From an uncultured Bacteroidia bacterium (GTDB lineage Bacteria; Bacteroidota; Bacteroidia; Bacteroidales; ML635J-15), in the NCBI GenBank assembly GCA_902776565.1, contig CACYQN010000011.1, forward strand, positions 48,561 to 112,560: a stretch of DNA of 64,000 nucleotides, read 5' to 3'. Made by a program: the position numbers and the translations under genes. This document shows positions 4,616 to 27,927 of this stretch, piece by piece. Under the pieces are notes generated by a model, which searched no databases, had not been told where the DNA came from, and saw nothing but the letters and a program-made list of their open reading frames with translations. The number at the start of each line of letters is the position of its first letter. Position 1 is the first letter of the stretch.

Positions 4616-4623
4616 AATCGTAA

Positions 4624-9159: not shown

Positions 9160-9171
9160 AAAATTATTGGT

Positions 9172-9420
9172 ATGAAAGCATATAATCAGAACAGTCAGAT
9201 AATGCCATTGTTGATGAATTTCGTTGTTCCTACCGACATAGTTGAGTATGTTCCAACCGAATTCTCATACGATGATGCAAATCAGGTAACATACGAAATG
9301 ACAATCACCAGCACCCGCAGCCTTCGTCACCCTAGCACTCACAAGGGCGGTGAATATGTAGGCGTTGATGCAAAGAACGAAATCGACGACACCAAGAACA
9401 ACCGCCACATGTGGTTCTAG
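9172..9420 (+). CDS. candidate graspetide (omega-ester/amide RiPP) precursor peptide
   Basis: 82-aa ORF, 12 nt after the TerB-like gene and 9 nt before the ATP-grasp gene. The N-terminal PLLMNFV resembles the PFFARFL leader motif. The C-terminal part has a Thr/Ser cluster followed by an Asp/Glu/Lys cluster. Confidence 0.5.
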   Translation: MKAYNQNSQIMPLLMNFVVPTDIVEYVPTEFSYDDANQVTYEMTITSTRSLRHPSTHKGGEYVGVDAKNEIDDTKNNRHMWF

Positions 9421-9429
9421 TCGCGTGAG

Positions 9430-10419
9430 ATGATTCTTATTTACACAAATAAGGAGGATACTCATCCTACCAACGTCATCAAGTACCTGAACGAATGGAA
9501 TGTTCCAGTATTCAGGCTTAACACCGAGTGCATTCTTACCGACTACGAGTTTGAATGGTGGTGCGATGACAGAGGTGTCGATTTCCGCATAAAAAATATA
9601 AAGAACGACCTGCAACTTTTCGGACATGAGATTACTGCGGTATGGGACCGTCGCGCCTTGGTTCCGTCGGAGTTGCCGGTGGTTAACGAACATGACGAGA
9701 TAAACCGCCATAACCTCGACGAGGCTCGCGGTTTTCTCGCTTTTTTGCGCTACTACACAAAAGATATTTTTTCGATAGGTAGCATTGTGGAAGACCGTCC
9801 CGCCGACTCCAAGATGCTGCAGTTGCAGGTTGCGCGTTCGCTCGGAATGCCTACTCCAGATACAAGTTTTGCAAATACCAAGGATGCGGTGCTGAAGTTC
9901 GCACGTAACTACGAGTACATTTCGCTCAAGTCGATTGTCGATAGCGGACTTTTCCTCGGTGGCGACAAGGAATATGTGTTCTTTTCGCAGCGAATCAAAA
10001 GCAGCGACCTTGAAAGTCAGCCCGACGAGGCCTTCTCGCAGACAGTAAGTTTTGTCCAGAACTATATAGACAAGAAGTACGAACTGCGCATTACGGTCGT
10101 GTGCGACGATGTGATTGCCTGTAAGATAGATTCGCAGTTGCAGTCGGAAACCACAGGTAAAATCGACTGGCGGCAAGGCTACGAGCACGACCTGAAGCAC
10201 GAAATTGTGGTAATTCCAGATTTTGTCTCGGATTTCTGCCGAAAGTTCCTGAAGCACATGAAGCTCAATTTCGGTTGCTTCGACTTTATTGTTACTCCAG
10301 ACGATAAATATGTTTTCCTGGAGTGTAATCCCAATGGACAATGGCTTTGGATAGAAATCGTAACAGAGTTTGACATATCCAGGGTAATAGCGGAGAATTT
10401 GGCAAAGAAAGAACGTTAG
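9430..10419 (+). CDS. MvdD/MdnC-family ATP-grasp ribosomal peptide maturase
   Basis: 329 aa. The N-terminus ILIYTNKEDTHPTNVIKYL is typical of microviridin-type ligases. KYELRITVV is followed by DWRQ. C-terminal FGCFDFIVTPDDKYVFLECNPNGQWLW block. Confidence 0.75.
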   Translation: MILIYTNKEDTHPTNVIKYLNEWNVPVFRLNTECILTDYEFEWWCDDRGVDFRIKNIKNDLQLFGHEITAVWDRRALVPSELPVVNEHDEINRHNLDEARGFLAFLRYYTKDIFSIGSIVEDRPADSKMLQLQVARSLGMPTPDTSFANTKDAVLKFARNYEYISLKSIVDSGLFLGGDKEYVFFSQRIKSSDLESQPDEAFSQTVSFVQNYIDKKYELRITVVCDDVIACKIDSQLQSETTGKIDWRQGYEHDLKHEIVVIPDFVSDFCRKFLKHMKLNFGCFDFIVTPDDKYVFLECNPNGQWLWIEIVTEFDISRVIAENLAKKER

Positions 10420-10467: not shown

Positions 10468-10630
10468 GTCATTCCACAAAGCAGAACGAACCGACTAAGG
10501 AACGTGTCGTGTGAGTTCGCTTATGCGGAATCTCCTTTAATACAGTTCAATAGCAGATTACGGACAGCAGTATTCACAACGCTCCCCATTCTGTATCGCG
10601 TGTTACAACGAACTTCCGAACCTTTAGCTC
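10468..10630 (-). ncRNA. unclassified conserved structured element, copy 1 (candidate sRNA or MITE-like repeat)
   Basis: The reverse complement aligns over ~155 nt with 27732-27888 (long identical blocks such as acacgcgatacagaatggggagcgttgtga). A 1-nt length difference in the variable hairpin loop breaks any common reading frame. Confidence 0.4.
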
Positions 10631-10767
10631 GCGCAGTGAAACAAGCAAATGACAAGTTAAATGATTGATTAGTAGCGTTATTGCAATTATATAGGATACC
10701 AACAATTAACTTGATACGCCTTTCATATCCTCGCACATTGCTATGCTGCAATTTGTATTATTGTTCG

Positions 10768-11454
10768 TCACTGTCTCTTAAGCACAAGATTTTCAAATCC
10801 GTATTCGTTTCCATTTTGAAAAGTTCCAGATAGTTTAAGAGAGCCTTTAAATTTCTCAAAATCTGAAACTTCGTAAGTCCATCCTCCGCCTCCCCAAGAA
10901 TCATTGAGAATTACTGTGTCTTCAACAAATCCGTTTGATGTATATTTTGCATAACATGTGTCAATGTCAGTGTGGTTTATCGTAAACACTATCTTGGTAT
11001 TATCATGGCGATTTTCCTTTTTGTATATCTGCCAGTCTCCCCTATATCTTTTCTTGAGAGTTGTTATTAATATCGTATCTGTATTCTCAATAGTATCTAT
11101 ATGCTTGCATATAAGTGTTTTATAAATAGTATTTTCGTCATAGAAATTCAAATTACAATCCTTGGTGTATAAACTTCTTCCGTCTCCATTTTCACTGCTA
11201 TCAGCATTGATAGTCCATGTTTTGTCACTTAATATCTGATTGGTGTTGATGTCAGTTATTAATTCGTGATAATCTAGGTCATTTATCGATGTTGTAATCT
11301 TCAAATGTCCATCCTTTACTATTTCTGAGTTAGATTCCATTATTGCCCATACTCCAAAATAGGTTAGTTTATCATGTTCTGTACGGCGACAATTAGGAAA
11401 TATTACCAATGTGATTATTAATGATACGACTATTGTTGAAATGCGCTTTTTCAT
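10768..11454 (-). CDS. hypothetical lipoprotein
   Basis: 228 aa. Signal peptide with Cys (VIFPNC). AT-rich. No recognised domain. Confidence 0.45.
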   Translation of the reverse strand: MKKRISTIVVSLIITLVIFPNCRRTEHDKLTYFGVWAIMESNSEIVKDGHLKITTSINDLDYHELITDINTNQILSDKTWTINADSSENGDGRSLYTKDCNLNFYDENTIYKTLICKHIDTIENTDTILITTLKKRYRGDWQIYKKENRHDNTKIVFTINHTDIDTCYAKYTSNGFVEDTVILNDSWGGGGWTYEVSDFEKFKGSLKLSGTFQNGNEYGFENLVLKRQ

Positions 11455-11845
11455 AATATTTTAAACTATTAAGTTTTGTCAAAAGTAACAAATTATTTTT
11501 ATCCTCAAAAATTAATATTTTTCTCCGTTTAAATCTCGGTGCAAATACAGGATGACTGGATGTTTTAGCGTTGACTAGTCCCAAGTACTATTAGCACTAT
11601 AACCTCCGATATGGTATTTTAACCCCTCTACTGCATTTTCAAATTCTTCTTTTTTTTCAAACTCATAAATACTTCTCAATTCTGCCATAGTTATCTTTGC
11701 GCAGTTATATCCCATTGCGCCCATCGGTTTGAAGTTATTAAATTTGGAACAAAGTTATGAATAGGAAATAAAGTGTGTTTGTTATATTGTATTGGATATT
11801 TTGACAGATTATTTCAATTTATTTGACAGATTGTCAAATATCTTT

Positions 11846-12076
11846 TTACAAGCTCTTTTCTTCCATATAATCGGAATAACATTTAAAGAAGTCATAATCG
11901 AGTACTTCACAAACTTTTAGCAGTTGGTCTGTGTATATGAAACTGCGGCTGAGTAGATAGTACATATTTTGCCGAGTGCATCCTATCTGTTTTGATAGCC
12001 ATCGTGTACTCCGTCCCTGTCGTGCAAGTTCCGCCTTAATAAGATTTCCGATATGTGGTGCTTCGTGTTTATCCAT
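11846..12076 (-). CDS. XRE-family helix-turn-helix DNA-binding protein
   Basis: 76 aa. IGNLIKAELARQGRSTRWLSKQIGCTRQNMYYLL is a typical HTH_XRE pattern. Confidence 0.65.
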   Translation of the reverse strand: MDKHEAPHIGNLIKAELARQGRSTRWLSKQIGCTRQNMYYLLSRSFIYTDQLLKVCEVLDYDFFKCYSDYMEEKSL

Positions 12077-12421
12077 TACCTTTGTTTTTGCAACATAAAA
12101 AGCGTGGAATTAAATTCTTGCCTAAACTCCGGGTTACCACGCCCACCAACTCAAACAAGTATTCCACGCCATGCCATACACGACATTTTGGAAACCTATT
12201 CTCGAGTTGGTGAGTCTTAGTTGACTCTTGTGGTAAATTGGAGTTCAAGAATTGCTTCTGTCCGCTATTTATATGTTAATATGTTCTTTTTGTTTCTTAC
12301 ATTTCCGTTATTTATGTTTGAATGACAAAAGTAAGGAAAATTTTTATTTAGTGACTATAAATTCAACGATTTATGCGATTGTGCAGATTCAACAAGCAAA
12401 TTCAATATTCGCCAATGACAA

Positions 12422-12477: not shown

Positions 12478-14058
12478 TTATCCGAGGAAGCTCAACAGCA
12501 GACCGGCTGCGATTGCCGAGCCTAATACGCCGGCAACATTCGGTCCCATTGCGTGCATGAGGAGGAAGTTGCTCGGGTTTTCCTTCTGACCTACGGTCTG
12601 CGAAACGCGGGCTGCCATTGGCACTGCCGAAACGCCTGCCGAACCGATAAGCGGATTGATCTTTTCCTTGAGGAAAAGGTTCATGAACTTCGCCATTAAA
12701 ACGCCACCTGCAGTACTGAAGCTAAATGCTACAACACCGATGATAACGATTTCGATGGTCTTGAGAGTAAGGAACGAACCTGCTACTGCGGTTGCACCAA
12801 CCGAAATTCCGAGGAATACGGTTACGATGTTCATAAGTTCGTTCTGTACGGTCTTGCTAAGTCTTTCGGTTACACCGCATTCCTTGAGCAAGTTGCCGAA
12901 CATCAAGCAGCCGATAAGCGATGCTGCCGACGGAACTATGAGAACTGCAATCATAGTAATTACAATCGGGAAAACGATCTTTTCCTTCTTGCTTACATCC
13001 CTGAGCTGCTTCATTGTAATCTGGCGTTCCTTCTTGGTTGTGAGAGCCTTCATGATAGGTGGCTGGATTACAGGAATCAAAGCCATGTAGGAGTAAGCTG
13101 CGATTGCGATAGGACCGAGCAAATCCGGAGCAAGCTTCGAGGTGAGGAAGATTGCCGTAGGACCGTCGGCACCACCGATGATACCTATTGAACCAGCCTC
13201 GTTTGGTGCGAAACCTATTGCTACTGCGCAGAGGAAGGTAATGAAGATACCGAACTGAGCTGCAGCACCGAGCAGAAGGCTCTTCGGGTTTGCAATCAGC
13301 GGACCGAAGTCAGTCATTGCGCCGATACCTATAAATATTAAGCACGGGTAAAGACCCAACTTAACGCCCATATAGATGATGTCCAACATACCGCCTTCCT
13401 TCAGAATTGTGCCGTAGCTGTGGTAAGCAGGGCTATTCTCGTCGAGGAAGTTCGACCAAAGTTCGCTGTGGTACATTTCTGCGCCTGGCAAGTTCGACAA
13501 CAGCATACCGAATGCTATCGGGAGGAGAAGAAGCGGTTCGTACTGCTTTGCAATTGCAAGATAAATGAGCAGACAGCTGATAAGCAACATTATGATTGCC
13601 TTCCAGTTTTCGCCCAAACCTGCGATACCGCTGGTCTTGCAGAACTTTACGATTTTTCCCCAGGCCGAATCGTCGGTTTCCTGCGGTTCTACATTTGCAT
13701 TATTGCATTCGGCAGTGTTTGAATCTACATTTACTTTTACAGCGTTTTCACCGTCGCCAAGATTGCCAATCTGAATAGTAATGCCATTGAGCAATTCGGC
13801 AATCTCTTCTTCGCTCATATCATTACCTTCAATAACTTTAGTATAAGTATAGCAATTTGACTTTACGGTGTCGCCGCCAATCATTACTGTAACACCTGCC
13901 TGTCCGTCAGTCTTGCTGACCGTAGCTCCCGTAGTTGCTTCCACCTTCTGATTTTCGCCATCGGTTTTGTCCTGTGCGAAAATATTTGGAGAAGCCAGCA
14001 TCGAAATCAGGAATACGAACCCGACAAGCAGACTTTTCTTTAAAATATCCATAATCAT
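12478..14058 (-). CDS. mmdB: Na+-translocating decarboxylase beta subunit (OadB/MmdB family) with ~140-aa N-terminal extension
   Basis: The C-terminal ~385 aa is polytopic with [19 protein letters not shown] and [10 protein letters not shown] blocks of the OadB/GcdB/MmdB family. The N-terminus has a signal-like segment plus a soluble region. Confidence 0.85.
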
Positions 14059-14073
14059 ACTTTTTTAGGTTCG

Positions 14074-14499
14074 TTATTCGATTTCAACAAGTGCATCGCC
14101 GAGGGCAACAGTTCTGCCGACCTCAACATAAACAGCCTTTACTGTACCGTCCTTTTCAGCCATAATGTTGTTTTCCATCTTCATGGCTTCCATTACCAAC
14201 AGAGTGTCGCCACGCTTAACAGCCTGACCTGCCGATACCAAAATCTTAACTACATTGCCTGGCAACGGAGCCTTTATTGCCGATGCCGATGCTGCTGTAG
14301 CAGGTGCTGCTGGCTTCGGAGCCGATGCTGCTGCTGGCTTTGGAGTCGGCTTGGCAACCTTTGCTATCTGCGGTTCCTTTTCCTTCTCTATTTCTACTGT
14401 GTACGACTTGTCGTTGACCTTTACATTGGCGATGGTGTCGTTTACATCTACCTCGACAGCGTACTTTTTACCTTCTATTGTAAGATTGTACTTTTTCAT
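14074..14499 (-). CDS. mmdC: biotin carboxyl carrier subunit (MmdC-like)
   Basis: Ala/Pro-rich linker, then the biotinyl-Lys motif LVMEAMKMEN. Confidence 0.85.
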   Translation of the reverse strand: MKKYNLTIEGKKYAVEVDVNDTIANVKVNDKSYTVEIEKEKEPQIAKVAKPTPKPAAASAPKPAAPATAASASAIKAPLPGNVVKILVSAGQAVKRGDTLLVMEAMKMENNIMAEKDGTVKAVYVEVGRTVALGDALVEIE

Positions 14500-14503
14500 T
14501 TCC

Positions 14504-14848
14504 TTAATTATTTAACCACGGGGAATAAACCTGTGACACATTCTTGATTGTTAATACATTGGATTCTTTGTCGTGTTCGCCGCCGAAATACAAGTGCAGA
14601 GCGACAGCGATTGCTGCATAGTCGGCATCGTCAACTTTTCCGCTGGCTTTGGCTTCGGCAGCAGGCTTCGGTGCTTCCACCTTTGCTTCCTGCTTCTTGC
14701 CCTTCTTGGCAATAACGCCGAAAAGCGTCATCACTATAACGAAGAAAGCCATAATGAGCAAAACTATGCAGAAACATATTCCTACCAATGCCCAAGTGTC
14801 GTTCCAGCCCCAGTTTTCTGCGTTGACTGCTAATAACATATTACTCAT
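14504..14848 (-). CDS. OadG-family small membrane subunit (MmdD-like)
   Basis: 114 aa. One TM helix, a Lys/Ala/Glu-rich linker, and AAIAVALHLY as in OadG-like subunits. Position within the operon fits. Confidence 0.55.
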   Translation of the reverse strand: MSNMLLAVNAENWGWNDTWALVGICFCIVLLIMAFFVIVMTLFGVIAKKGKKQEAKVEAPKPAAEAKASGKVDDADYAAIAVALHLYFGGEHDKESNVLTIKNVSQVYSPWLNN

Positions 14849-14859
14849 GACAATACGGT

Positions 14860-16419
14860 TTATAGAGGAATATTATTATGTTTCTTGTTAGGACGGGTAT
14901 CCTTCTTGGTTGCCAAAGCTGCAAGTGCGCGGATAATTCTGAAACGCGTGTTGCGCGGTTCGATTACATCGTCGATGTAACCGTACTTGGCTGCCTGATA
15001 AGGATTTGCAAATGCTTCCTTATATTCGGCTTCCTTTTCGGCTGCATATTTGGCCTTTTCTTCCGGATTTTCGATTTCCTTCATGCCCTTTGCGTAGAGG
15101 ACCTCGATAGCACCCGATGCGCCCATAACTGCTATTTCTGCCGACGGCCATGCGTAGTTGAAATCACCCTTCAACTGCTTCGAGCTCATAACATCGTGAG
15201 CACCGCCGTACGACTTGCGCAATGTAACGGTAACCTTCGGAACAGTAGCTTCGCCGTATGCGTACATCAACTTTGCACCGTTGGTGATGATGCCGCCGTA
15301 TTCCTGATTGCTACCCGGCATAAATCCAGGAACATCAACCAAGGTTACCAGCGGAATGTTGAAGCAGTCGCAGAACCTGATGAAGCGTGCGCCCTTGCGC
15401 GACGATTCGATGTCGAGGCAACCTGCGAGGAACGAAGGCTGGTTGGCAACAATACCTACCGACTGTCCATTGAAACGGGCAAAACCTACAACGATGTTCT
15501 TTGCATAGTCCTTGTGAACTTCCTCGAACTCGCCGTTATCTACGATGAGCTTTATGATGTCCTTAACATCGTAAGGCTTGTTGGGGTTGTCGGGAAGAAT
15601 CGTGTTCAATGCATCTTCCATTCTGTCAATCGGGTCGGTGCATTCGACGCGTGGAGTCTGCTCCTTGAAGTTCTGAGGCATATACGAGATAAGTCTCTTC
15701 AAGGTGTCGATTGCATCTTCCTCGTCGTGAGCCACAAAGTGAGCCACACCCGACTTCGATGCGTGAACCATTGCACCGCCGAGGTCGTTTTCGGTAATTG
15801 TTTCACCGGTAACGGTCTTGGTTACCTTTGGTCCAGTTACGAACATATAGCTATTCGATTCCGACATGATTATATAGTCGGTGAGAGCCGGTGAATAAAC
15901 AGCACCACCAGCGCAGGGACCGAGGATTGCCGACAACTGTGGAACAACGCCTGATGCTTCGATGTTGCGCTGGAAGATTTCTGCGTAGCCCGAAAGGCTG
16001 GTAACGCCTTCCTGAATACGAGCGCCACCGCTGTCGTTCAAGCCGATGATAGGAACGCCGGCCTTCATAGCCATATCCATAACCTTGCAGATTTTCTTGG
16101 CGTTGGTTTCCGACAGAGAACCGCCCATTACGGTGAAGTCCTGTGAGAAAACATAAACCATTCTGCCACCGATAGTTCCGTAGCCGGTAACGACGCCGTC
16201 GCCGAGGAACGATTCCTTTTCGATGCCGAAGTTGTGGCATCTGTGGGTTACAAACATGTCGATTTCTTCGAAGCTGCCTTCGTCGAGGAGCATGTTGATT
16301 CTTTCGCGGGCAGTGTATTTGCCCTTCTTATGCTGTGATTCGATGCGCTTTTCGCCACCGCCCAGACGGGCTTCGGCACGCATGTCAACCAATTTTTTAA
16401 TTTTTTCTTCTAAAGCCAT
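14860..16419 (-). CDS. mmdA: methylmalonyl-CoA carboxyltransferase (acyl-CoA carboxylase beta family; MmdA-like)
   Basis: Start taken at [10 protein letters not shown] (ATG 16417-16419). Carboxyltransferase blocks [37 protein letters not shown] and [11 protein letters not shown]. Confidence 0.9.
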
Positions 16420-16430
16420 CTTGTGATTTT

Positions 16431-16841
16431 TTACTTGTTCTTGTCTTCGCAAAATTCAGTGAGCACGCCGAAAGTTGACTTCGGGTGGAGGAAAGCAATG
16501 CTGAGGCCTTCGGCACCCTTGCGCGGAGCCTTGTCGATAAGGCGCAAACCAGCGAGTTCGGCATCCGACAAGCATTTTTCGACACCATTTACGCAGAAAG
16601 CGATGTGGTGAATGCCTTCGCCCTTGTTCTCGATGAACTTTCCAACTGGGCTGTCGGCCTCCATCGGCTCAAGAAGCTCGATTTTTGTCTGTCCAACCTT
16701 GAAAAATGCTGTAGTTACCTTCTGGTCAACAACTTTTTCGATAGCATAACACTTGAGACCCAATACGCCTTCGTAGTATTTTTTAGCCTCTTCGATTGAC
16801 TTAACGGCAATGCCAATGTGTTCTATGTGAGATATATCCAT
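16431..16841 (-). CDS. mce: methylmalonyl-CoA epimerase (VOC superfamily)
   Basis: 136 aa. [15 protein letters not shown] and GIHHIAF blocks. First gene of the mmd operon. Confidence 0.85.
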
Positions 16842-16868
16842 TTTAAAAATATTTTAAAAATTTTTGCG

Positions 16869-16884
16869 CAAATTTACAAAGATA
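16869..16884 (-). promoter_or_regulatory. two overlapping candidate -7 boxes (TATCTTTG, TAAATTTG) for the mce-mmd operon
   Basis: The minus strand reads tatctttgtaaatttgcg 28-43 nt upstream of the ATG at 16841. Both octamers fit TAnnTTTG. Confidence 0.35.
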
Positions 16885-17103
16885 TTTTCAGTTTTAAAAT
16901 ATTTGTTTGAGGTTTTTTGTGGGTGTTGTTGAGCATACACAACCTCCTATTCTCCACCAGCCCTTGTTTCCTTCCTGATTTTTGTCATTTTCTCCCGAAG
17001 CCCACCATTTTTAGCAAAATTATCCTGCAACACCTTAATGTATTTACCCATTGCAGAATCTACCTGATGGATTAGGGTAACAGCCACATTCACAATCCGT
17101 TGT

Positions 17104-17405
17104 CCTTTCGGATTTATAATCCGAAAGGCTTGAATATCAGCATTTGTAATGCGGAAATAACATTTATAATGTAAACAATAGACAAGTACATAATTGGATT
17201 TAAAATCCTTATATTCACGCTGTCTGGATTGCAAATCCAGACAACATTGGGATTCCATCTCTCAAATATTTTTGCAAACTTAACAAATAATCCCCTTTTC
17301 CGCATTGCAAAAATCATTTAACTTTGTGCTTCTGAAAAAACAAGTATATACTTTGTCCTTTCGGATTTATAATCCGAAAACTTTGAATATAAGGATTTTT
17401 AATCC
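17104..17405. repeat. hairpin-repeat cluster A (GGATT-NNN-AATCC family)
   Basis: Five hairpins: cctttcggatt-tat-aatccgaaagg (17104-17128), ggatt-taa-aatcc (17196-17208), gtctggatt-gca-aatccagac (17222-17242), tttcggatt-tat-aatccgaaa (17357-17379) and ggatt-ttt-aatcc (17393-17405). Confidence 0.8.
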
Positions 17406-17475
17406 GCAACAAGTATCACCATTTCATTACAAATCCAGAAACTGCTTTATACTAAATTTCTTTTACAAAAAATCT

Positions 17476-19245
17476 CTATTTCCCATATATTTCAACATAT
17501 TCTCGCAAATATTTGAATGGAAATGGAATCACTGTCAATTGATTATTTCTTACAAAAGAGACATTCATCGTTTCTAGTATTTCATGGAAGAATAAAGAAT
17601 TGTTTTTATATGGAATTACTTTTCTAATATGAGTTGCATGAGAAACACTTGACTGCATTCCTTTTCCGATGACACCAGATGAGTAGTATTCACAATTATT
17701 CTCTTTATTATTGAAATAATGAATGTCTACACAGCCACAAAAATTTTCTGGCCGTTCTTTTTCTGACCTACTGATAATATTGCCCTTATGTAATATCTCT
17801 TCAACTCTTTCCATATTTGGCAACATAAACAACGGTGTTTCTTGAATGATATTAACCTCTTCCTTATTGTTTTTAACAACCCCTCGATATTTTTCGTCTA
17901 TATTCTTTGTTTTATTATCTTCAGCAATTGCTCTTATTTCATTGTATTCATCACTGTTAAACAAATCATTTGAAAGTTTTTCAATTTTAAAAAATCCTTC
18001 ATAATTTATTGTCATACAATAAAAGTCATCTTTATCAAATAAAACAAATCTCCATTCTTTATTAAAATTCCAATCATAAAGAGACACCTTGTGAGATTGT
18101 ATCAAATCGTATTTGACCAATAGCTCATTTAGAATTACAATAACATTTGGAGATAGCTTATCATTATTTTCTAAATTAAACCCTTCTAATGTAATATGTT
18201 GAACAATTTTATCAGAACACACTTTGTACATGTCTTCTATATGTAAACTTTCATAATACTCTTTATCATGAATAATCTTAATGTTAAAATCATTTTTACC
18301 GACCCTATCCTTAATGACAATATTTATGTTTTCAAGAAATAGGCTCAATTGCTGCTTTAGTATGTCACACAATTTAACCGAATTTTTATCATTTATTGTA
18401 TCAACTATTCTTATTGTTTTGTTCTGAAAAGCTTTTTTTAACAATTTGTCATGTTTTTCTTTGTTTTTTACAGCATTATCAACATCAATATGTTCCCAAT
18501 CTGATTCTACACTAAAATCAATATTTGCATATCTGCTATAATGCTTTTTGAATTTTGAAATGATTTTGCATAATATTCCAATTTTTGATTTGTTAAAATG
18601 CTCAAAATCGGCAGTATCCAGAAATTTAATCTCACTTTTTTCTCCTTTATACTGTGATATAGAATATCCTATCTTATATTTATCTTTTTCAGTTTTTAAT
18701 CGCAAGGTATTATTTGATTGTAAAACATAACTTTTAGAATCGGATTTATTATCTTGTTTTGTTAAAGTTTTGACATTTAAAGAAAAGACATAATTCTTTT
18801 TTATTTGGAACTCAATACAGACTATCTGAGAATTTGTTTTTTTACAAAAGTAATACAGTTTTCCACCAATATTACTTGCTCCATCATTTGGCGGCAATGA
18901 TGCTAATGAGTTAAATAGAATCTGCAACAATGAATGTTCATACCTTTTCTCAAAAGGAATATGCAATTGTTCAAATGACAAATCATTATCATTTTCTGCA
19001 TTATATTTAGTCACTATTTCTTTTATAACTATTTTATTATTGCTGTTCTTTTTCAACATAACAATAAAGCTATTGCCTGAAGTATATTGTATAGCCAGCA
19101 CTTTTCCATCAAGAACAGGTCCGTCAAGAATTCTTGCAGATGGTTTCTTAAGCAATGTCCCTTTCTTTATTAGAAAAAAGTCAAAATCTTTATCAATTTC
19201 CTGGTAATTATATTTAGCTACAATTATATTGCTTATTATTTTCAT
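17476..19245 (-). CDS. 589-aa protein of unknown family; weak MID/PIWI-like patterns (DdmE-like pAgo candidate)
   Basis: Its ATG (19243-19245) overlaps the upstream stop as ATGA. Very AT-rich. Residues ~320-352 (FNIKIIHDKEYYESLHIEDMYKVCSDKIVQHIT) resemble a MID 5'-end-binding strand/helix pattern. The C-terminus LTVIPFPFKYLREY resembles the PIWI C-terminal P-x-P-x-x-Y-A pattern. Confidence 0.4.
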   Translation of the reverse strand: MKIISNIIVAKYNYQEIDKDFDFFLIKKGTLLKKPSARILDGPVLDGKVLAIQYTSGNSFIVMLKKNSNNKIVIKEIVTKYNAENDNDLSFEQLHIPFEKRYEHSLLQILFNSLASLPPNDGASNIGGKLYYFCKKTNSQIVCIEFQIKKNYVFSLNVKTLTKQDNKSDSKSYVLQSNNTLRLKTEKDKYKIGYSISQYKGEKSEIKFLDTADFEHFNKSKIGILCKIISKFKKHYSRYANIDFSVESDWEHIDVDNAVKNKEKHDKLLKKAFQNKTIRIVDTINDKNSVKLCDILKQQLSLFLENINIVIKDRVGKNDFNIKIIHDKEYYESLHIEDMYKVCSDKIVQHITLEGFNLENNDKLSPNVIVILNELLVKYDLIQSHKVSLYDWNFNKEWRFVLFDKDDFYCMTINYEGFFKIEKLSNDLFNSDEYNEIRAIAEDNKTKNIDEKYRGVVKNNKEEVNIIQETPLFMLPNMERVEEILHKGNIISRSEKERPENFCGCVDIHYFNNKENNCEYYSSGVIGKGMQSSVSHATHIRKVIPYKNNSLFFHEILETMNVSFVRNNQLTVIPFPFKYLREYVEIYGK

Positions 19246-22200
19246 ATATTTTCGTTTATTATTTTTATGATTTTTTCCTTAATATCCATATCTATTTTCC
19301 CATTTTGTGTATCATATAAACGAGGGATTTCGATTATACGCCCACAATGCGATTCTATTGGATGTCTTTCATCTGCTAAGATGTTAATAATTAAAGCTTT
19401 CTGACCTCCGCATTTTTCCAATTTTTCCATAATATGAGGAATAATATCCGCACTCTGAGGAATAAACTTAGAATATTCGTTCCAATGTTTGAAATCTACA
19501 TAAATGTCTTTACCTGGAATCTTGTAATCAAATAATTCAAATAAATTTTTGTCTTCAATTTCCTCTAACCTGATATTAAATATTTTATTGAATATTTCTT
19601 TGCCTATGTATTCGCCAAGAGCGCCTTTATATATGTTTGTAAAAACCGGAGGACAAATAATGTAGTCATTTTCATTGAAGGTTATTGCAAATTCCTTATT
19701 TTTAAATAATTCTCTTATAAAATCAATATTCAAAAAAGTATCCAATCGAGCAGAATCAGACGAAACATCCTCGAACCGAGGTTTCTTATCAAATGAAATT
19801 TCAATGTCATTGAAATCTCCAGTTCTTTTAAAGAAAACCTTATTAGATTTTTCATACAATTTTATATAGAGTGGCTGATACAAATTATCAATATGTGAAA
19901 AATCATCTTCAGACATAGTTGGATGAGTCAGAACAAAATGTCTAATTTTTTGCCACTCAGAAATAGCATCATCACTCCATCCATTTCTACCATCTGACAC
20001 ATAGCGAATAATTCTATTTAACGCTTCAATTGATTTTGTTTCTGCCTGATTAATGAATTTTTGTTCATCATTTGTTATGTATTCCCTTTTTTCATTTATA
20101 CTTCTTAACAATTCGCTAAACTCTGGATTCAATAAATCATTTTGAGAAATATGACTATCAATTATGGATGATAGATCGTTGTCGTAATATATGTATATAG
20201 TCTTATTCTTGCTATTTGTACGACAGATACGCCCTACAGCCTGCATCACTTTTTGTCTAACAAATTTTTTGTAATCATCCATGCCTTTAAAAGAGAATGG
20301 CGTTATTTTTTCAGAATAAAAATAACCTTTAAATGCTTCTTTAATATAGAGATAGGTCTCTCTTAATGAGAGCATACCATTTTCTTTAAGATATTCTATT
20401 GGGGCGATATATTTGACCAAACTATCCTTTTCATATTTATTTAATAGTTTATACAAATTAGTCGGAGACTCAAGATATATAGCATCAAAATCCTTGCATT
20501 TGCTTTTCCTTATATCATTAATGTGTATAGTTTTTTGTTTATATGGCGTTTCGTATTGTAGATTCTGTCCCGCGCCAATAGTTTGGTATGTAGAAATAAC
20601 TAATATCTTTTCGCCATCTTTTAATCGTTTTTGTAAATAATCTTTTGTGTTTTCATAATCCGTTGATCTTAGAACTACAACATTATTATCGAACGACAAA
20701 TCTGTTTTATTTTGGGCACACAATTTATCGAATATTTCTTTCAATAAACCTTTATTAAATTTGTCTTCTGAAGAAAATTTATTGTCATCAGGGAATTGGT
20801 TGAAAAAACATAACATTGATTTTATGTCGTCATTTTCAATGAATTTCTTTATTGCTATAGCAGCCTTGAATGTACGAATAACCATAAACTCTCTGCTATA
20901 ATAATGTGATATTTTGTCACAAATCTCTTCGACATCTGCATCAGAAGTATATATAGATGACCAATCGACATTTTTATATACAGAACATTTAATATCTTCA
21001 ACTATAATGTTTACTCTATCATAATGACTTATTGATTTTTCAAAATGATTTTTCATCACTTCAAATTCTTCATCAGTAAATACGAAAAATTTGTCTTTTA
21101 ACTTAGGGATTAAATAATCATCTAAAGCGTAATTACCTATGCATGTAGGAATTTGAGCTGTAGCAGAAATGCCAAACACTTTTGCGTTTTCGCAAATATC
21201 AAGCAATATCTTTTCTGGAGAGGAAGCCAATTCTGTTATTCTAACAGAAGAACTAAAAGAATGTCCATCGTCATCTTCTATTGAATAGTACGAAAAACCT
21301 TTGTCAAAAAAAGATGCATCTAAAACGTTGTTTTTCCTTGCTTTCTCATTTTTACGATACAGCATTATTTCATTTGCGAAGTATTTTCTTACATTGTCAT
21401 CATCTATAAAGATGTCTAAAAATGACATAATTGCATCTTCAAGGGTATAATCTTCATTTCCATTTTCTTGTTTGCATTGCAAATAGTTAATCGCTAATAT
21501 TTGAATGCAACCACTAAAATATTTCAAAAATCCCTTAATGTCATTTAGCATGTATCTGAAATCTTTTGACAATTCATCACTTGCATCACCAAATCTTATT
21601 ATATTTTGTCGTTTCGAATTATCTTTTTCATATACAATTTTATCGTTCAGCTTATTTCCAGCTATAGTAATGTTTCTAAAATCATGGAACAGAAATGTTT
21701 TATACGAATCATCTTCTACATTTTCTTCCAACTTAAAGTCTAAATGCATTCCATATTTTTCGTATATATCATTACAGCGTTTTTGGCATTTCATAATTAT
21801 ATCATTCAGTCCGTCTTTGCCATATTTGGTTTTAAGCTGTTGCTGTGATGCAACAGTCATTTCAACAGGCAAATTCTCAGATTTTAAATTATGATATATC
21901 TGCTTATAGGCATCTATACAATTTATTTGAGATTTTATTGCGTCATTGACAAGACTATTCAAAATCTTATCCTTCGTACTGTCAAATTCATCTATGAAAA
22001 TTATAGCATCCTTAGCTAAATCTTTGAAAATATAGGAACTTTTCTCGATTATTGGATCATTTCTTAACAAAAACTTATCCATACTCATCATATAGACTTT
22101 CTTTTCTTTGGTGAGAATTTGAGGATAAACCTCAATAACCCAACTCCAATATCTTTTTATATAGTCTATTTTCCTTTTGTATGTGTATATTTTTCCTTTT

Positions 22201-22700
22201 TTTAATTCATCATTCAAATATTTCTTAACTATTTTACGAAAGTTTGGTTCTTGTGTATCCTTTATTTTATTTCTATAATCTTCTACAATCTCTTTGACAT
22301 TAGGGTCATTACATTTGCTATTTTCATTAATAAATTTTATTGATTGAGCTAGTTTATTGTATTCATTACTATTTCGCACATTTTTATTAATCGAATTAGA
22401 AAACTTTAGAAGGTTATCAACAACACATTCTAAGAAAGATTTTATCAACAACACATTCTCGTCAAATAACCTTAATTCTTCATCTCCCTTAAAATGATCT
22501 TTTAGTCCTTCTAAGTCAATATTCTTCTTTAATGAGGTAATGAAAACGATTTTATCTTTCCTCTTTTCTACAATAGCATCATGAATAAACTTAAATACGG
22601 TATATGTCTTGCCAGAACCTGTTGGCATGGGCAAAAGCAATAATCCGTTATTTTGCATTTTCTCGTAAGCGTAACCTTTTAATATGTCGTTTAAATCCAT
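19242..22700 (-). CDS. SF2 helicase fused to C-terminal PD-(D/E)xK-like nuclease (DdmD-like candidate)
   Basis: 1152 aa. Motif I PMPTGSGKT (aa 24-32), II IIFIDEFD (233-240), III GISATA (510-515), V-like VISTYQTIGAGQNL (701-714), VI QAVGRICR (820-827). Then GALGEY (E1030), ELFDY (D1058) and YVDFK (D1069, K1071). Confidence 0.6.
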   Translation of the reverse strand: MDLNDILKGYAYEKMQNNGLLLLPMPTGSGKTYTVFKFIHDAIVEKRKDKIVFITSLKKNIDLEGLKDHFKGDEELRLFDENVLLIKSFLECVVDNLLKFSNSINKNVRNSNEYNKLAQSIKFINENSKCNDPNVKEIVEDYRNKIKDTQEPNFRKIVKKYLNDELKKGKIYTYKRKIDYIKRYWSWVIEVYPQILTKEKKVYMMSMDKFLLRNDPIIEKSSYIFKDLAKDAIIFIDEFDSTKDKILNSLVNDAIKSQINCIDAYKQIYHNLKSENLPVEMTVASQQQLKTKYGKDGLNDIIMKCQKRCNDIYEKYGMHLDFKLEENVEDDSYKTFLFHDFRNITIAGNKLNDKIVYEKDNSKRQNIIRFGDASDELSKDFRYMLNDIKGFLKYFSGCIQILAINYLQCKQENGNEDYTLEDAIMSFLDIFIDDDNVRKYFANEIMLYRKNEKARKNNVLDASFFDKGFSYYSIEDDDGHSFSSSVRITELASSPEKILLDICENAKVFGISATAQIPTCIGNYALDDYLIPKLKDKFFVFTDEEFEVMKNHFEKSISHYDRVNIIVEDIKCSVYKNVDWSSIYTSDADVEEICDKISHYYSREFMVIRTFKAAIAIKKFIENDDIKSMLCFFNQFPDDNKFSSEDKFNKGLLKEIFDKLCAQNKTDLSFDNNVVVLRSTDYENTKDYLQKRLKDGEKILVISTYQTIGAGQNLQYETPYKQKTIHINDIRKSKCKDFDAIYLESPTNLYKLLNKYEKDSLVKYIAPIEYLKENGMLSLRETYLYIKEAFKGYFYSEKITPFSFKGMDDYKKFVRQKVMQAVGRICRTNSKNKTIYIYYDNDLSSIIDSHISQNDLLNPEFSELLRSINEKREYITNDEQKFINQAETKSIEALNRIIRYVSDGRNGWSDDAISEWQKIRHFVLTHPTMSEDDFSHIDNLYQPLYIKLYEKSNKVFFKRTGDFNDIEISFDKKPRFEDVSSDSARLDTFLNIDFIRELFKNKEFAITFNENDYIICPPVFTNIYKGALGEYIGKEIFNKIFNIRLEEIEDKNLFELFDYKIPGKDIYVDFKHWNEYSKFIPQSADIIPHIMEKLEKCGGQKALIINILADERHPIESHCGRIIEIPRLYDTQNGKIDMDIKEKIIKIINENI

Positions 22701-22723
22701 AAAATATAATCTTATTTGCAGCC

Positions 22724-22731
22724 CAAATATA
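22724..22731 (-). promoter_or_regulatory. candidate -7 promoter box (TATATTTG) for the helicase-nuclease operon
   Basis: The minus strand reads gtatatttggg 24-31 nt upstream of the ATG at 22700. Exact TAnnTTTG match. Confidence 0.35.
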
Positions 22732-22915
22732 CTGCTAAAATTCGAGTTGGAACAAAGTTGTTATTAACAATCATTTTAAACACTACTATAATTTATTAAC
22801 ATATAAAATGTTAATTTTTTTTATCGTGTTGGATTTACTATTATGTCAGTGAGCAGACTCTATTGAATACAATCATTTCTAATGCTTATAGCGATAAAAA
22901 TGATGATACCTTTGT

Positions 22916-23125
22916 CCTTTCGGATTTATAACCTATAACTCAGCAACACATTTTTCTTACTGCCGATTTAGCCATAACGCAAAAAATCTGTATGAACATT
23001 TTTCTATAAAATGGAAAAATAATTTGTACTGTTTAAAAGGCTAGCAATTAAAGGATTAAAAATCCTAATATTCATATAGTCTGGATTGTTGCTAATGCAA
23101 CGAGCTAAAGGTTGCAAATCCAGAC
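22916..23125. repeat. hairpin-repeat cluster B
   Basis: A degenerate cctttcggatttataacc (22916-22933) and ggatt-aaa-aatcc (23053-23065). Also gtctggatt...aatccagac (23079-23125), interrupted by a 26-nt insert gttgctaatgcaacgagctaaaggtt. Confidence 0.75.
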
Positions 23126-23176
23126 AACTTTGATAGGAGGAAACGATTTATTGCAAAAGCAATATTTATTAATTTT

Positions 23177-23242
23177 TTCAGTGCGTTGAAGAAATTTGTA
23201 CAAAATTATTCATTGCGTTGAAGATTTTAATTATTTTTGCAT
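23177..23242 (+). promoter_or_regulatory. upstream repeat unit with two TTCA-N6-TGAA dyads (putative operator/promoter of the ATPase gene)
   Basis: ttcagtgcgttgaaga and ttcattgcgttgaaga lie 32 nt apart. The whole 66-nt unit recurs downstream of the gene at 24403-24467. Confidence 0.4.
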
Positions 23243-23260
23243 CGACAAAAAGAATGAATT

Positions 23261-24391
23261 ATGATTGAAAGAAGATTGGCAAATGTTATTTCAAGTTTGT
23301 TGACAAACCAAAAGGTTATGCTTGTATATGGAGCAAGACGAGTTGGTAAAACCGTATTAATCAGGCAGGTGTCGGAAAAGTATGCGGGAAAGACTTTGTT
23401 CCTGAACGGAGAAGATGCTTCTACGGAAGTAATGTTTCGGGAAAGAACAGCAGCACATTATAGGCAATTGCTTAGCGGAGTTGACCTTTTAATAATTGAT
23501 GAGGCACAAAATATTCCTGAAATTGGCAAAATATTGAAGCTGATAGTTGATGATGTTGAAAACATTCAGGTCATTGCATCTGGTTCTTCCTCATTTGATT
23601 TGCGAAATCAAACTGGCGAGCCATTGGTCGGAAGGTCATACACTTTCCACTTATCGCCATTGTCTGCTGAGGAATGGCTGACGCAAATTCCTGCCGCACA
23701 ATTATATATGGATCTTGAAGAACGTCTTGTATATGGCAACTACCCTGAGCTTCTTTCTATTAAAAGTTTTGAGCAAAAGCAAATGTACTTAAGCGAGCTT
23801 GCGCAATCGTACCTGCTTAAAGATATTCTGACATTGGACGGCATAAAAAACTCAAGCAAAATGTATAATCTATTGCGCTTGGTTGCTTTTCAAATGGGGA
23901 GCGAAGTTTCGTATGACGAACTCGGCAAACATCTGTCGTTGAGCAGGAACACTGTGGAAAAATACCTTGATTTGCTAGCAAAAACTTTCGTAATCTATCG
24001 GCTTCCGGCGTATTCGCGTAATCCGCGCAAGGAGGTCAGTAAAGCTGGCAAATGGTATTTCTACGACAATGGCATTCGAAATGCTGTAATTGGAGATTTC
24101 CGTCCGCTTGCAATACGGCAGGATGTTGGGGCATTGTGGGAAAGTTATATGATATCGGAGCGTATGAAACTCAACGACAACAGACACGACACTTCTATGT
24201 ACTATTTCTGGAGAACATACAATGGACAGGAAATTGACTTGATAGAAGAGCGCAACGGAGAATTGAAGGCTTTTGAGTTCAAGTGGGGAGATAAAAAGCC
24301 AAAGTGTCCCAGTTCGTTCAAGGACAACTATCCCGATGTGCCATTTACATCAGTAAATAAATCCAACTTCATTGATTTTGTAACGAAATAA
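23261..24391 (+). CDS. AAA+ ATPase with C-terminal DUF4143-like domain
   Basis: 376 aa. Walker A GARRVGKT, Walker B LLIIDEAQ. Architecture typical of Bacteroidetes 'ATP-binding protein' (AAA_14 + DUF4143). Confidence 0.7.
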   Translation: MIERRLANVISSLLTNQKVMLVYGARRVGKTVLIRQVSEKYAGKTLFLNGEDASTEVMFRERTAAHYRQLLSGVDLLIIDEAQNIPEIGKILKLIVDDVENIQVIASGSSSFDLRNQTGEPLVGRSYTFHLSPLSAEEWLTQIPAAQLYMDLEERLVYGNYPELLSIKSFEQKQMYLSELAQSYLLKDILTLDGIKNSSKMYNLLRLVAFQMGSEVSYDELGKHLSLSRNTVEKYLDLLAKTFVIYRLPAYSRNPRKEVSKAGKWYFYDNGIRNAVIGDFRPLAIRQDVGALWESYMISERMKLNDNRHDTSMYYFWRTYNGQEIDLIEERNGELKAFEFKWGDKKPKCPSSFKDNYPDVPFTSVNKSNFIDFVTK

Positions 24392-24402
24392 TTACTAAAT
24401 TT

Positions 24403-24467
24403 TTCATTGCATTGAATAAATTAGTACAAAAATCTTCAATCAGTTGAAGATTTTCATTATTTCGCAT
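24403..24467 (+). repeat. second copy of the 23177-23242 unit, not followed by a gene
   Basis: Roughly four-fifths identical to the upstream unit by hand alignment. Followed only by ~65 nt before the converging gene's stop at 24532. Confidence 0.6.
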
Positions 24468-24531
24468 AGCTCACAAGTGTGATTACTTTGTGTACGAAAG
24501 ATTATTGCTGGGGCTTTTTCCGAGAATATCA

Positions 24532-25842
24532 CTACATATCCTCCATCGACAGCAGTCTATATTCAATTTCGTAGCCGTCGAGGTTTGGCTTCAGCACTTC
24601 CGACTTGGAGATTAGCACTTCAGCATTCAACTTTTTGGAATTGCGTTTCACTTCGGCAATAACGGCTTTTTTGTCCAAATCGCTCATTGCAATCAAATCT
24701 ATTTCATTTACGCCTTTTCTGTCCCAAAATGCTCCAATGTTTGTCATGCGCTCCTGCTGGGCAATCTTGTCGCGGAAGTACATTTCCAGAACGCGTCCGC
24801 TGTATTGCTCGTAATCCTTTTCTACAATCTCACGCAACAGGTCAAACCGTCCTTGTTCTATCAGCATCTGATTGGGATACACATACCTAAACCAAAAACG
24901 CAGGAAATTGTCGGAAATCGACCAGCGCGAGTTTCGGCTTCCGGGCTTGGAGAAAATCGGACGCACACGGCGGACAAGCATATATTCGTTTTCGAGGTTG
25001 TACAGATATGCGCCAGTGTTCTTGCCGATTATGGAATCAATTTCGGGCTGAGTGTTTTTGCCCGATGCAATTAGATGCAACACAGAGAAATATATGCCGT
25101 AGTCCTTGCCGAATTCCGAAACAAGAATGTCGCGACCTTCGGTCAAGAATGGCGAGTCGGACGAAATTACACGCCTCAACATCTTGCGCCAGGTTACTGC
25201 CGCACTGTCCATCAGCACCGAAACATACTTGGCAACTCCGCCGGTCAGTAGATATAGGCAAAGCAGGTCTTCTGATGTGTATTTGCGATTGTAGTCGCCA
25301 AGTATTTCTTTTAATGTTGCCACTGAAAAAGGGTTTAGCACCAGCTTTGATGTCTGGCGGGCAAAAAGTGGCTCCTGCCGTCCTTCGAATATGCGTATCA
25401 TCATTGAGTAGATAGAGCCACAGGCAATGAGGTTTATCCGAGATTTGTCCTTGTTTTTGTCCCAAATGTTGCGTATGTCACCGAAAATTGCTGGATTTAC
25501 ATTGTTCAGTTCCTGAAATTCATCAATAATAAGTGTAAAAGGCACTTGTTCCGAATATTTCATCAGCATTTCGAAAACCTCAGCGAAACTCGATGCCGTT
25601 CCCATGAAGTTCGTGCCGAGCTGCCTCTCTGCTTCCTGCTGGAAACTATATGCAAGAAGAGCTTCGCTTTGTCTAGTAACAAAAAAGTACAATGCAGGGT
25701 TCCCTTTTACCGACTCGAGAAGCAGACTAGTCTTGCCTATACGCCTTCTGCCCACCATCACTGTGAAGCAGGATGTCTTTTTGGATTGAATCCGAGATGA
25801 TTTTAGTGACTTCAATTCGTCTTTTCTATCATAGAACTTCAT
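24532..25842 (-). CDS. ATPase (archaeal-ATPase/ORC-like P-loop plus DUF234-like C-terminal domain)
   Basis: 436 aa. Walker A GRRRIGKTSLL, Walker B LIIDEFQEL. The C-terminal region (FWDRKGVNEIDLIA) resembles DUF234. Confidence 0.65.
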   Translation of the reverse strand: MKFYDRKDELKSLKSSRIQSKKTSCFTVMVGRRRIGKTSLLLESVKGNPALYFFVTRQSEALLAYSFQQEAERQLGTNFMGTASSFAEVFEMLMKYSEQVPFTLIIDEFQELNNVNPAIFGDIRNIWDKNKDKSRINLIACGSIYSMMIRIFEGRQEPLFARQTSKLVLNPFSVATLKEILGDYNRKYTSEDLLCLYLLTGGVAKYVSVLMDSAAVTWRKMLRRVISSDSPFLTEGRDILVSEFGKDYGIYFSVLHLIASGKNTQPEIDSIIGKNTGAYLYNLENEYMLVRRVRPIFSKPGSRNSRWSISDNFLRFWFRYVYPNQMLIEQGRFDLLREIVEKDYEQYSGRVLEMYFRDKIAQQERMTNIGAFWDRKGVNEIDLIAMSDLDKKAVIAEVKRNSKKLNAEVLISKSEVLKPNLDGYEIEYRLLSMEDM

Positions 25843-25871
25843 AATTATTAGCGTTTTATGTGACTTATAAT

Positions 25872-26054
25872 TTAATAGTAATTAAGTTAATTTACATTAA
25901 ATTGTCGCAAAGATAATTCATTTTATTTGAACTGCAATGCGGATAGCTGAATTTTTATCACACATTTTTTTATTTTGCTTTTTTGAATTAATTGTTTATC
26001 AATAAAATAATATTTAATTAACTTAATAGCCATTAAGTTAATGTGCATTAAATT
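25872..26054. repeat. two ~32-nt direct repeats upstream of the DUF234-type ATPase gene
   Basis: ttaatagtaattaagttaatttacattaaatt (25872-25903) and ttaatagccattaagttaatgtgcattaaatt (26023-26054). Each contains the near-palindrome attaaGttaat. Confidence 0.6.
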
Positions 26055-26097
26055 AAAATGTGGTATTGCGTTGTGTACAGAAAATTACGCAGTTGTG

Positions 26098-26287
26098 TCG
26101 GATTTGCTGACTTGGGGTAGTGAGCTAAAGGTTGAAAATCCGACACATGCGAATATGGGTATTTGTAATGCGAAGACAGAATAATATTAAGCGGATTATA
26201 AATCATAATATTCATATAGTCTGGATTGCAAATCCAGACAACATTGATTGTTGCTCAGGCAACGAGCTAAAGGTTGCAAATCCAGAC
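26098..26287. repeat. hairpin-repeat cluster C
   Basis: tcggattt...gagctaaaggttgaaaatccgac (26098-26144), ggatt-ata-aatc (26193-26204) and gtctggatt-gca-aatccagac (26219-26239). Also gattgttgctcaggcaacgagctaaaggttgcaaatccagac (26246-26287). Confidence 0.75.
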
Positions 26288-26302
26288 AACACTATTCCCA
26301 AT

Positions 26303-27499: not shown

Positions 27500-27523
27500 A
27501 TAAAAACAATTTTCCGCAAAGGT

Positions 27524-27650: not shown

Positions 27651-27731
27651 TAGTACTAGCATTCTTGATTACCAATTATTGATGTCCGCTAAATTGTTTA
27701 CATAAAATGATTAGATGGTTGTGTCGTCCGT

Positions 27732-27888: not shown

Positions 27889-27927
27889 GGTGATGGATTT
27901 AGCGAACAGCACTAATTGCCACTAGAA

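Follow-up and report, generated by a model that had tools for sequence, protein, structure and literature searches.

In the DdmDE systems of V. cholerae and L. casei, the closest described relatives of the locus reported here, the prokaryotic Argonaute (pAgo) DdmE is paired with the helicase-nuclease DdmD, and both DdmE proteins (VcDdmE and LcDdmE) proved non-cleaving in experiments (for LcDdmE, 10.1101/2024.10.09.617351). A domain inserted into DdmE and termed INS by Loeff et al., the "DdmDE-interacting domain" (DID) by Yang et al. and, in the L. casei study (10.1101/2024.10.09.617351), the "insertion domain" is, in all three structural studies, the main docking surface for the HD2 helical hairpin of DdmD, and Loeff et al. 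describe it as conserved in long-C pAgos. Here we describe a ddmE-like gene in 64,000 nucleotides of DNA from an uncultured bacterium of the Bacteroidales, of rumen or bovine-gut origin (contig CACYQN010000011.1 of assembly GCA_902776565.1, positions 48,561 to 112,560; hereafter the window). The gene, at 17476..19245 on the minus strand, encodes a 589-aa Argonaute of the DdmE type that is without the INS domain and belongs to a large clade sharing this trait. With a probability of about 0.8, we consider it to be the sensing component of a DNA defence module of the DdmDE type.

The 589-residue protein is a DdmE homologue

The assignment of the gene rests on its open reading frame (ORF), which runs from ATG to TAG and is riddled with stops when the plus strand is read, together with homology and a structural model. 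Scans of the protein with Pfam, NCBIfam and PADLOC returned nothing above threshold, in agreement with an earlier note on this DNA, made from the letters alone, that saw no enzymatic motif; matches to PF09066 and slr1659 fell below those models' own thresholds and were taken as chance. A phmmer search of Protein Data Bank (PDB) chains did find LcDdmE (9iw3_A, E 2.3e-13) and VcDdmE (8u0j, 8u3k and 9ezy, E ~3e-5), and the aligned stretches are the two motifs at aa 320-352 (FNIKIIHDKEYYESLHIEDMYKVCSDKIVQHIT) and aa 570-587 (LTVIPFPFKYLREYVEIY), which the earlier note had quoted and which are indeed present in the translation. Database searching with the protein gave 34 relatives, all unannotated, and a family profile built from 25 of them (alignment A1) matched LcDdmE end to end (Lc residues 7-704, E 2.2e-47) and VcDdmE at E 1.8e-26.

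Structure prediction gave the same answer. An AlphaFold2 model computed from the family alignment had a mean predicted local distance difference test score (pLDDT) of 86.5 and a predicted template modelling score of 0.83. When it was compared with the PDB by Foldseek, the six best matches were all DdmE structures (E 1e-30 to 2e-20; template modelling scores 0.58-0.70, query-normalised), the best of them reaching 0.70 over ~715-750 alignment columns. Mouse MIWI, Arabidopsis AGO10 and Drosophila Piwi followed at E ~1e-8 and the Archaeoglobus Argonaute AfAgo at E 2e-3, with noise thereafter. The sequence matches and the model together therefore identify the protein as an Argonaute, and specifically as a homologue nested in the DdmE (long-C pAgo) family. 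The MID/PIWI fold that the earlier note suspected from weak sequence patterns is thereby borne out, as is its view of the protein as partner of the helicase-nuclease encoded directly upstream, which is DdmD.

Profile alignment, model and Foldseek agree that the full N-L1-miniPAZ-L2-MID-PIWI layout is kept. With domain limits transferred approximately from LcDdmE (10.1101/2024.10.09.617351), the N domain (aa ~1-100), L1 (~101-164) and a miniature PAZ/C-APAZ (~165-197) are encoded at 18655..19245, and this N-terminal lobe holds residues N112, N125 and G128, invariant in the alignment of 25 relatives. L2 (~198-257) and MID (~258-390), placed by alignment to both solved DdmE proteins and by conservation, occupy 18076..18654, and a PIWI-like domain (~391-589) occupies 17479..18075, all on the minus strand. 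The protein is thus not "intermediate between short pAgos and DdmE", as had been proposed from its length: it has the complete DdmE layout, and falls ~100 aa below the studied DdmE proteins, among the smallest family members, mainly because the INS/DID inserted in PIWI is missing.

Other assignments fared poorly. A short pAgo, consisting of MID and PIWI only, does not account for an N-terminal lobe of ~257 aa that aligns to DdmE N, L1, PAZ and L2, nor for a partner that is DdmD. A catalytic long-A pAgo is at odds with the missing conserved tetrad, the lack of any Pfam Piwi or PAZ match and a PAZ region of ~33 aa. A pseudogene, finally, is at odds with purifying selection, the gene having a ratio of non-synonymous to synonymous substitution rates (dN/dS) of 0.14. 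The PADLOC DdmE model recognises 6 of the 25 family members used for the profile. The idea that these were the INS-bearing ones was dropped after an individual scan, in which the matches proved to be scattered across the family, so that the model just lacks sensitivity.

A large clade of DdmE proteins lacks the INS domain

INS is inserted into the PIWI domain at profile position 515/516, where LcDdmE carries 87-107 aa (domain 510-616) and VcDdmE ~70 aa. At this site the window protein has ~21-28 aa, as judged from the profile alignment and from segment lengths, which come to 20-21 aa as against 87-125 aa in other homologues. What remains is a stump at aa 478-507 (17725..17814, minus strand), delimited by HMMER gaps and the model and made up of one helix followed by a short helix or turn, which the model shows with pLDDT 83-92.

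To see how widespread this form is, we used a conservation set of 68 proteins, comprising the window protein and 67 from species-representative genomes (n=68 throughout unless stated otherwise). The length of the INS site falls into two classes, 20-33 aa in 45 proteins and 87-125 aa in the other 23, so that, leaving the window protein aside, 44 of 67 species-level genomes carry the INS-less form. In a neighbour-joining tree the 45 INS-less proteins make up one clean clan, whose sister pair consists of two INS-bearing Firmicute proteins. Because this pair, VcDdmE and LcDdmE all bear INS, a single loss would be the parsimonious reading of the tree. INS-less proteins, for the most part of rumen or gut origin, come from Treponema bryantii, from Fibrobacter and Bacteroidales and from many Clostridia (Lachnospiraceae, Oscillospiraceae, Ruminococcus), and INS-bearing ones from marine Flavobacteriia, cyanobacteria, Methanoculleus and Erysipelotrichaceae. 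One strain, T. bryantii NK4A124, has two INS-less ddmD-ddmE pairs on separate scaffolds (L001 and L002), with DdmE proteins of 635 and 614 aa.

An exhaustive profile search of 1.84 billion representative sequences put the family at 1300 members with E<=1e-3, of which 580 reach E<=1e-30; among the best 150, 140 were near full length, and 80 of these were INS-less and 60 INS-bearing. We found no description of an INS-less DdmE in the literature searched.

The guide pocket is conserved and the PIWI domain is predicted to be inactive

Residues of the window protein were equated with those of VcDdmE and LcDdmE by counting along HMMER alignments, and their roles were taken from the two structures (VcDdmE, 10.1101/2024.05.10.593530; LcDdmE, 10.1101/2024.10.09.617351). 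The first motif, aa 320-352 (18190..18288, minus strand), contains Y340, the counterpart of VcY363 and LcY339, which bind the 5' nucleotide and phosphate, and Q349, the counterpart of VcQ376 in the Mg2+ shell. E374 and K378 (codons at 18112-18126, minus strand) correspond to VcE401 and VcK405 (LcK395), which contribute to the Mg2+ shell and contact the 5' nucleotide. The C-terminal motif at aa 570-587 (TVxPFPFKYLRE; 17485..17538, minus strand) supplies K578 and E582, equivalent to the C-terminal ligands VcK674 and VcE678 of the Mg2+ that bridges guide phosphates 1 and 3. In VcDdmE, alanine mutants of Y363, Q376, E401, K405, K674 and E678 abolish plasmid elimination (10.1101/2024.05.10.593530). 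Outside the pocket, R566, just before the C-terminal motif, aligns with the target-strand contact VcR662. K203, at the start of L2, aligns with VcK230 of the C-APAZ minor-groove sensor; the second member of that sensor pair, VcR232, is not conserved in the window protein, which has E205 in its place.

The same residues dominate the conservation of the family. K378, K578, E582, D338, D380 and Y331 are invariant in all 68 homologues; Q349 is kept in 67 and E374 in 62, and at position 340 one homologue has Arg and the other 67 have Tyr or His. The two motifs are the best-conserved blocks of the family, with N321, H326, Y331, D338, Q349, H350 and T352 (near-)invariant in the first and T571, P574, F575, P576, K578 and E582 in the second, and the pocket is likewise conserved in the 140 cluster representatives. 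On these alignments we take aa 320-352 to form a true MID 5'-end pocket, predicted to be closed by the C-terminal tail of PIWI. The earlier note had proposed such a pocket, with a Y...K...Q layout, and had likened the C-terminus to the PIWI tail of Argonautes. The tail, the pocket and the glutamine (Q349 of IVQHI) were read correctly; the tyrosine, by homology, is Y340 in EDMYKV and not the pair Y330/Y331 in KEYYES that the note seems to have had in mind, although Y331 does sit in the same pocket loop. His occupies position 340 in 33 of the 45 INS-less proteins and in 62 of the 140 representatives, whereas the window protein retains Tyr, and a different 5'-end preference could follow in much of the family.

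Neither the earlier note, by eye, nor the conservation analysis could find a DEDX catalytic tetrad. Among the homologues there is no invariant acidic residue in aa 391-575, and E582 is the only one in aa 391-589, leaving the PIWI part without an invariant acidic triad. In many homologues, Asn or Lys stands at the positions of D391, E433 and D507. A conserved tetrad therefore appears to be absent, and the PIWI domain is predicted to be catalytically inactive.

DdmD is the constant partner of INS-less DdmE

The start of ddmE overlaps the stop of the upstream gene by 4 nt (ATGA) on the same strand. This gene, at 19242..22700 (minus strand), encodes 1152 aa comprising a superfamily 2 (XPD/DinG-like) helicase fused to a PD-(D/E)xK nuclease, and was recognised by the PADLOC DdmD model at E 2.3e-49 and aligned with the structures of DdmD from V. 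cholerae and L. casei at E ~1e-49, from residue 162 or 287 to residue 1148. Among 63 DdmD homologues, Walker A (T27-K31), Walker B (D237/E238) and the arginine fingers R824/R827, equivalent to R855/R858 of VcDdmD (PMC11795196), are invariant, as are the nuclease residues E1030, E1055, D1058, D1069 and K1071, which align with VcDdmD E1059, E1082, D1085, D1100 and K1102. Of the 79 related loci that were scored, 71 have ddmD, or a fragment of it, immediately upstream of ddmE; the contigs of the other eight break off at ddmE or no more than ~1.1 kb upstream of it. A candidate promoter of the Bacteroidetes type, read by eye, precedes the pair at 22724..22756 (minus strand), 24 nt 5' of the ddmD ATG; its TTTG, 21-nt spacer and TAtaTTTG resemble the Bacteroides consensus of TTTG at -33 and TAnnTTTG at -7.

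We looked for something that could stand in for the missing domain. No conserved third gene that might supply INS in trans was seen near ddmDE, the largest neighbour cluster covering 4 of 66 loci, and the only compensating length change found in DdmE or DdmD was at DdmD 651-675, which is ~9 aa shorter in INS-less partners. A difference in charge did emerge: DdmD 881-910 carries a net charge of +3.95 where the DdmE partner bears INS and of +0.14 where it does not (p 4e-8). The segment corresponds approximately to the Arg/Lys-rich VcDdmD 914-944 and adjoins the contact that LcDdmD W897/E898 makes with INS, a mapping that rests on alignment offsets, a 121-aa sub-query having given no DdmD match. 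The pattern would fit a joint loss of a contact that pairs a basic patch of DdmD with an acidic INS, confounded as it is by phylogeny and with the mapping of the published patch unverified.

The gene pair is a mobile cassette in a strain-variable hotspot

The ddmDE region has 27-29% GC and its flanks 42-48%. It lies in an interval (16842-27927) between a methylmalonyl-CoA epimerase gene (16431-16841) and a GH78 rhamnosidase gene (27928-30462), and we compared this interval with that of sister-strain contigs carrying an identical epimerase gene. The interval is empty in strain L086. It holds only ATPase_2/DUF234 and AAA_14/DUF4143 ATPases in L081-L083 and L085; a protein of 517 aa together with a DZR zinc-ribbon and a DUF2971 protein in L084; and Schlafen-AlbA, DUF4325, EMARD_N and kinase-Sel1 proteins in L087. 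Since the strains differ in cargo at the same place, the interval is a strain-variable hotspot.

The two genes also occur elsewhere as a unit. A metagenome contig from the European Nucleotide Archive (L089) carries at 4449-9788 the same cassette with 86% nucleotide identity, matching window positions 22814-17454; the match begins 114 nt before ddmD and stops 22 nt past the end of ddmE. There it lies between two peptidyl-prolyl isomerase genes, beside Fic and AAA_14/DUF4143 genes and without the junction repeat described below. This different context indicates that the two-gene unit (17454..22814, minus strand) moves between loci or genomes.

Relative to L084, the exchange borders fall at window positions 22910 and 17331, at copies of a 20-23-nt repeat (TTGTCCTTTCGGATTTATAA) that is confined to the hotspot. 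The copy proximal to the 3' end of ddmE (CC/ACTTTGTCCTTTCGGATTTATAA) is at 17350..17372, with a further copy at 17097-17119, and the copy upstream of ddmD is at 22909..22931, near the border at 22910. A second short direct repeat, TTGCAAATCCAGACAAC, is present as well, and further repeat copies at 17229-17249 and 23112-23132 flank the cassette. Palindromes of the form GGATT-N(1-7)-AATCC occur nine times in the window against 0.6 expected (15-fold), eight of them inside the hotspot. Repeats and palindromes may be recombination sites or an element resembling repetitive extragenic palindromes; no recombinase gene was seen near the repeats.

Several other features of the neighbourhood deserve mention. 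A 103-aa ORF at 16947-17258 (minus strand), whose sole match is the "four helix bundle suffix" domain (TIGR04258), is a remnant: strains without ddmDE have a gene of 194-197 aa at the same place, ~425 bp of which has been replaced by repeat sequence. On the other side of the cassette, an AAA_14/DUF4143 ATPase (23261-24391, plus strand) matches the PADLOC candidate system PDC-S01 at E 2e-152 and lies between the two copies, 81% identical, of an 81-nt direct repeat (23156-23236 and 24382-24462); two further ATPases of the same broad kind lie at 24532-25842 and 26303-27646. Beyond the hotspot, 12478-16841 (minus strand) is a housekeeping operon for methylmalonyl-CoA epimerase, carboxyltransferase, OAD gamma, biotin carrier and the beta subunit of a Na+-translocating decarboxylase, a propionate-pathway decarboxylase typical of Bacteroidales. 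A second variable insert of 36% GC (~10500-12400), between the decarboxylase beta subunit gene and an ATP-grasp gene, encodes a 76-aa HTH_26 protein (11846-12076) and a 228-aa protein of no family (10768-11454); L087 and L088 have this insert and L081-L086 lack it.

Discussion

Our analysis places the window protein within a known defence system, and its intact pocket, its invariant partner and the selection acting on both genes suggest that it most likely works like DdmE. Measured against the 86%-identical copy in L089, dN/dS is 0.14 for ddmE and 0.20 for ddmD, and the cassette genes are thus under purifying selection. If it behaves like its homologues in V. cholerae and L. casei, DdmE would load a short 5'-phosphorylated DNA guide, with the 5' nucleotide and Mg2+ held in the MID pocket by Y340, Q349, E374, K378 and K578/E582. 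The guide would then pair with one strand of invading plasmid-like DNA to give a D-loop, and the displaced strand would be passed to the co-translated DdmD, which would translocate 5'->3' and degrade the DNA. With INS/DID absent, we infer that DdmD may be recruited through the remaining L1/mini-PAZ surface, through the D-loop DNA, or through both.

Several observations weigh against a working DdmDE module. Deletion of INS abolishes plasmid elimination by VcDdmDE (10.1101/2024.05.10.593530), so that the known route of DdmD recruitment might be closed to a DdmE without INS. The 589-aa protein escapes the PADLOC DdmE model, and its identity to known DdmE proteins in structural alignments is only ~16-17%. 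The guide type and length, the range of targets (plasmid versus phage) and the surface contacted by DdmD are extrapolated from distant relatives. As to expression, weak evidence comes from short contigs of two gut metatranscriptomes, which cover parts of both genes, one of them spanning the junction; they are few and low-depth and may stem from contaminating DNA.

One possibility, which we regard as evenly poised between right and wrong, is that INS-less DdmE marks out a DdmDE subtype of its own, widespread among anaerobes of gut and rumen. In this subtype DdmD would be recruited without the DID, via the L1/mini-PAZ face or the D-loop DNA alone, and would have lost a basic patch in parallel. 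A differently coupled system, to which we give somewhat less than even odds, would dispense with stable docking altogether: DdmE would open a D-loop or mark the DNA, and forked or single-stranded DNA alone would load DdmD and disassemble its dimer; alternatively, docking would have moved wholly to L1/mini-PAZ. In vitro, forked or single-stranded DNA by itself does dissociate and activate the autoinhibited DdmD dimer (10.1101/2024.10.09.617351, 10.1101/2024.07.20.604412), and the L1-PAZ-L2 side of the interface is present in both solved complexes and retained in the window protein. The lower charge of DdmD 881-910 and the shortening at 651-675 are the pattern expected if an INS-binding basic patch had been lost with INS. 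Yet the charge difference could simply mirror phylogeny, since the INS-less proteins are one clade, and the placement of the published patch on DdmD 881-910 is unverified.

It is also conceivable, if improbable, that these proteins share only ancestry with DdmE and use a different guide or target chemistry, such as an RNA guide, an RNA target or specificity for phage. LcDdmE binds weakly with RNA combinations and accepts a wider range of guide lengths than VcDdmE (10.1101/2024.10.09.617351), and the 5'-phosphate tyrosine has given way to His in most INS-less members; nevertheless, the ligands of Mg2+ and the 5' phosphate are invariant, the window protein keeps its Tyr, and the obligatory partner joins a DNA helicase to a single-stranded DNA nuclease. 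Least probable of all is a decaying or crippled system in which the loss of INS ended DdmD recruitment and left a non-functional remnant or selfish passenger, because, for all that INS deletion kills the V. cholerae system and that the main DdmD contact lies on INS, a dead system would not have lasted and spread as a single old clade across Bacteroidales, Clostridia, Fibrobacter and Treponema, making up 80 of 140 representatives with full-length ORFs, invariant pocket residues, intact DdmD throughout and dN/dS of 0.14-0.20.

A DdmDE-type module whose DdmE lacks the docking domain would have several implications. The accepted model of DdmDE, an anti-plasmid system solved only recently, rests on INS docking, and a large natural clade without INS challenges its generality: the clade is in effect nature's own "deletion mutant", accounting for about half of the nearest 140 representatives and spanning four phyla. 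If INS-less DdmE does define a subtype that recruits DdmD in another way, the DdmDE mechanism can do without the DID, and the minimal DNA-guided sensor of this type is a protein of ~590 aa. The clade may also yield a smaller programmable DNA-guided module. Furthermore, the window protein and 19 of the 25 relatives closest to it go unrecognised by the PADLOC DdmE model, and DdmDE has therefore probably been under-counted in Bacteroidales and Clostridia, where barriers to plasmids bear on the spread of resistance genes and on genetic tractability.

Compared with VcDdmE (VC1770; 8u0j, 8u3k, 9ezy, 9bgk) and LcDdmE (9iw3, 9ixm), the window protein has full-length homology, a common fold, the same 5'-phosphate/Mg2+ pocket, no DEDX tetrad and a gene directly after ddmD; it differs in being without INS/DID and ~100 aa shorter, in having E205 for VcR232 and in its host, an anaerobic rumen member of the Bacteroidales. 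The INS-bearing homologues of Kordia, Polaribacter, cyanobacteria, Methanoculleus and some Firmicutes (entries P0026-P0034 and L041-L080) share 23-34% identity and the same ddmD operon but, unlike the window protein, carry 87-125 aa at the INS site and have a basic equivalent of DdmD 881-910. Long-B pAgo-nuclease systems and short pAgos (SPARTA/SPARSA, SiAgo) likewise join an inactive Argonaute, as guided sensor, to an effector encoded in the same operon, a principle that the window pair has in common with them, although the Pfam, NCBIfam and PADLOC scans gave no sequence match to these families. Short pAgos consist of MID and PIWI with a separate APAZ-effector and act through TIR, SIR2 or nuclease effectors in abortive infection, whereas the window protein has a complete N-terminal lobe and its effector is a translocating helicase-nuclease. 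By analogy, the system also recalls type I CRISPR Cascade-Cas3, a likeness drawn by the authors of 10.1101/2024.07.20.604412: in both, a non-cleaving guided complex would open an R- or D-loop and load a helicase-nuclease on the displaced strand, and DdmD has weak matches to Cas3 hidden Markov models at its Walker A region. Unlike Cascade-Cas3, the window system would use DNA guides and a single Argonaute, with no CRISPR array and with an XPD/DinG-like helicase joined to a PD-(D/E)xK rather than an HD nuclease. Set beside these relatives, the locus is a known system in a structurally variant form, and the new point is a DdmE without INS.

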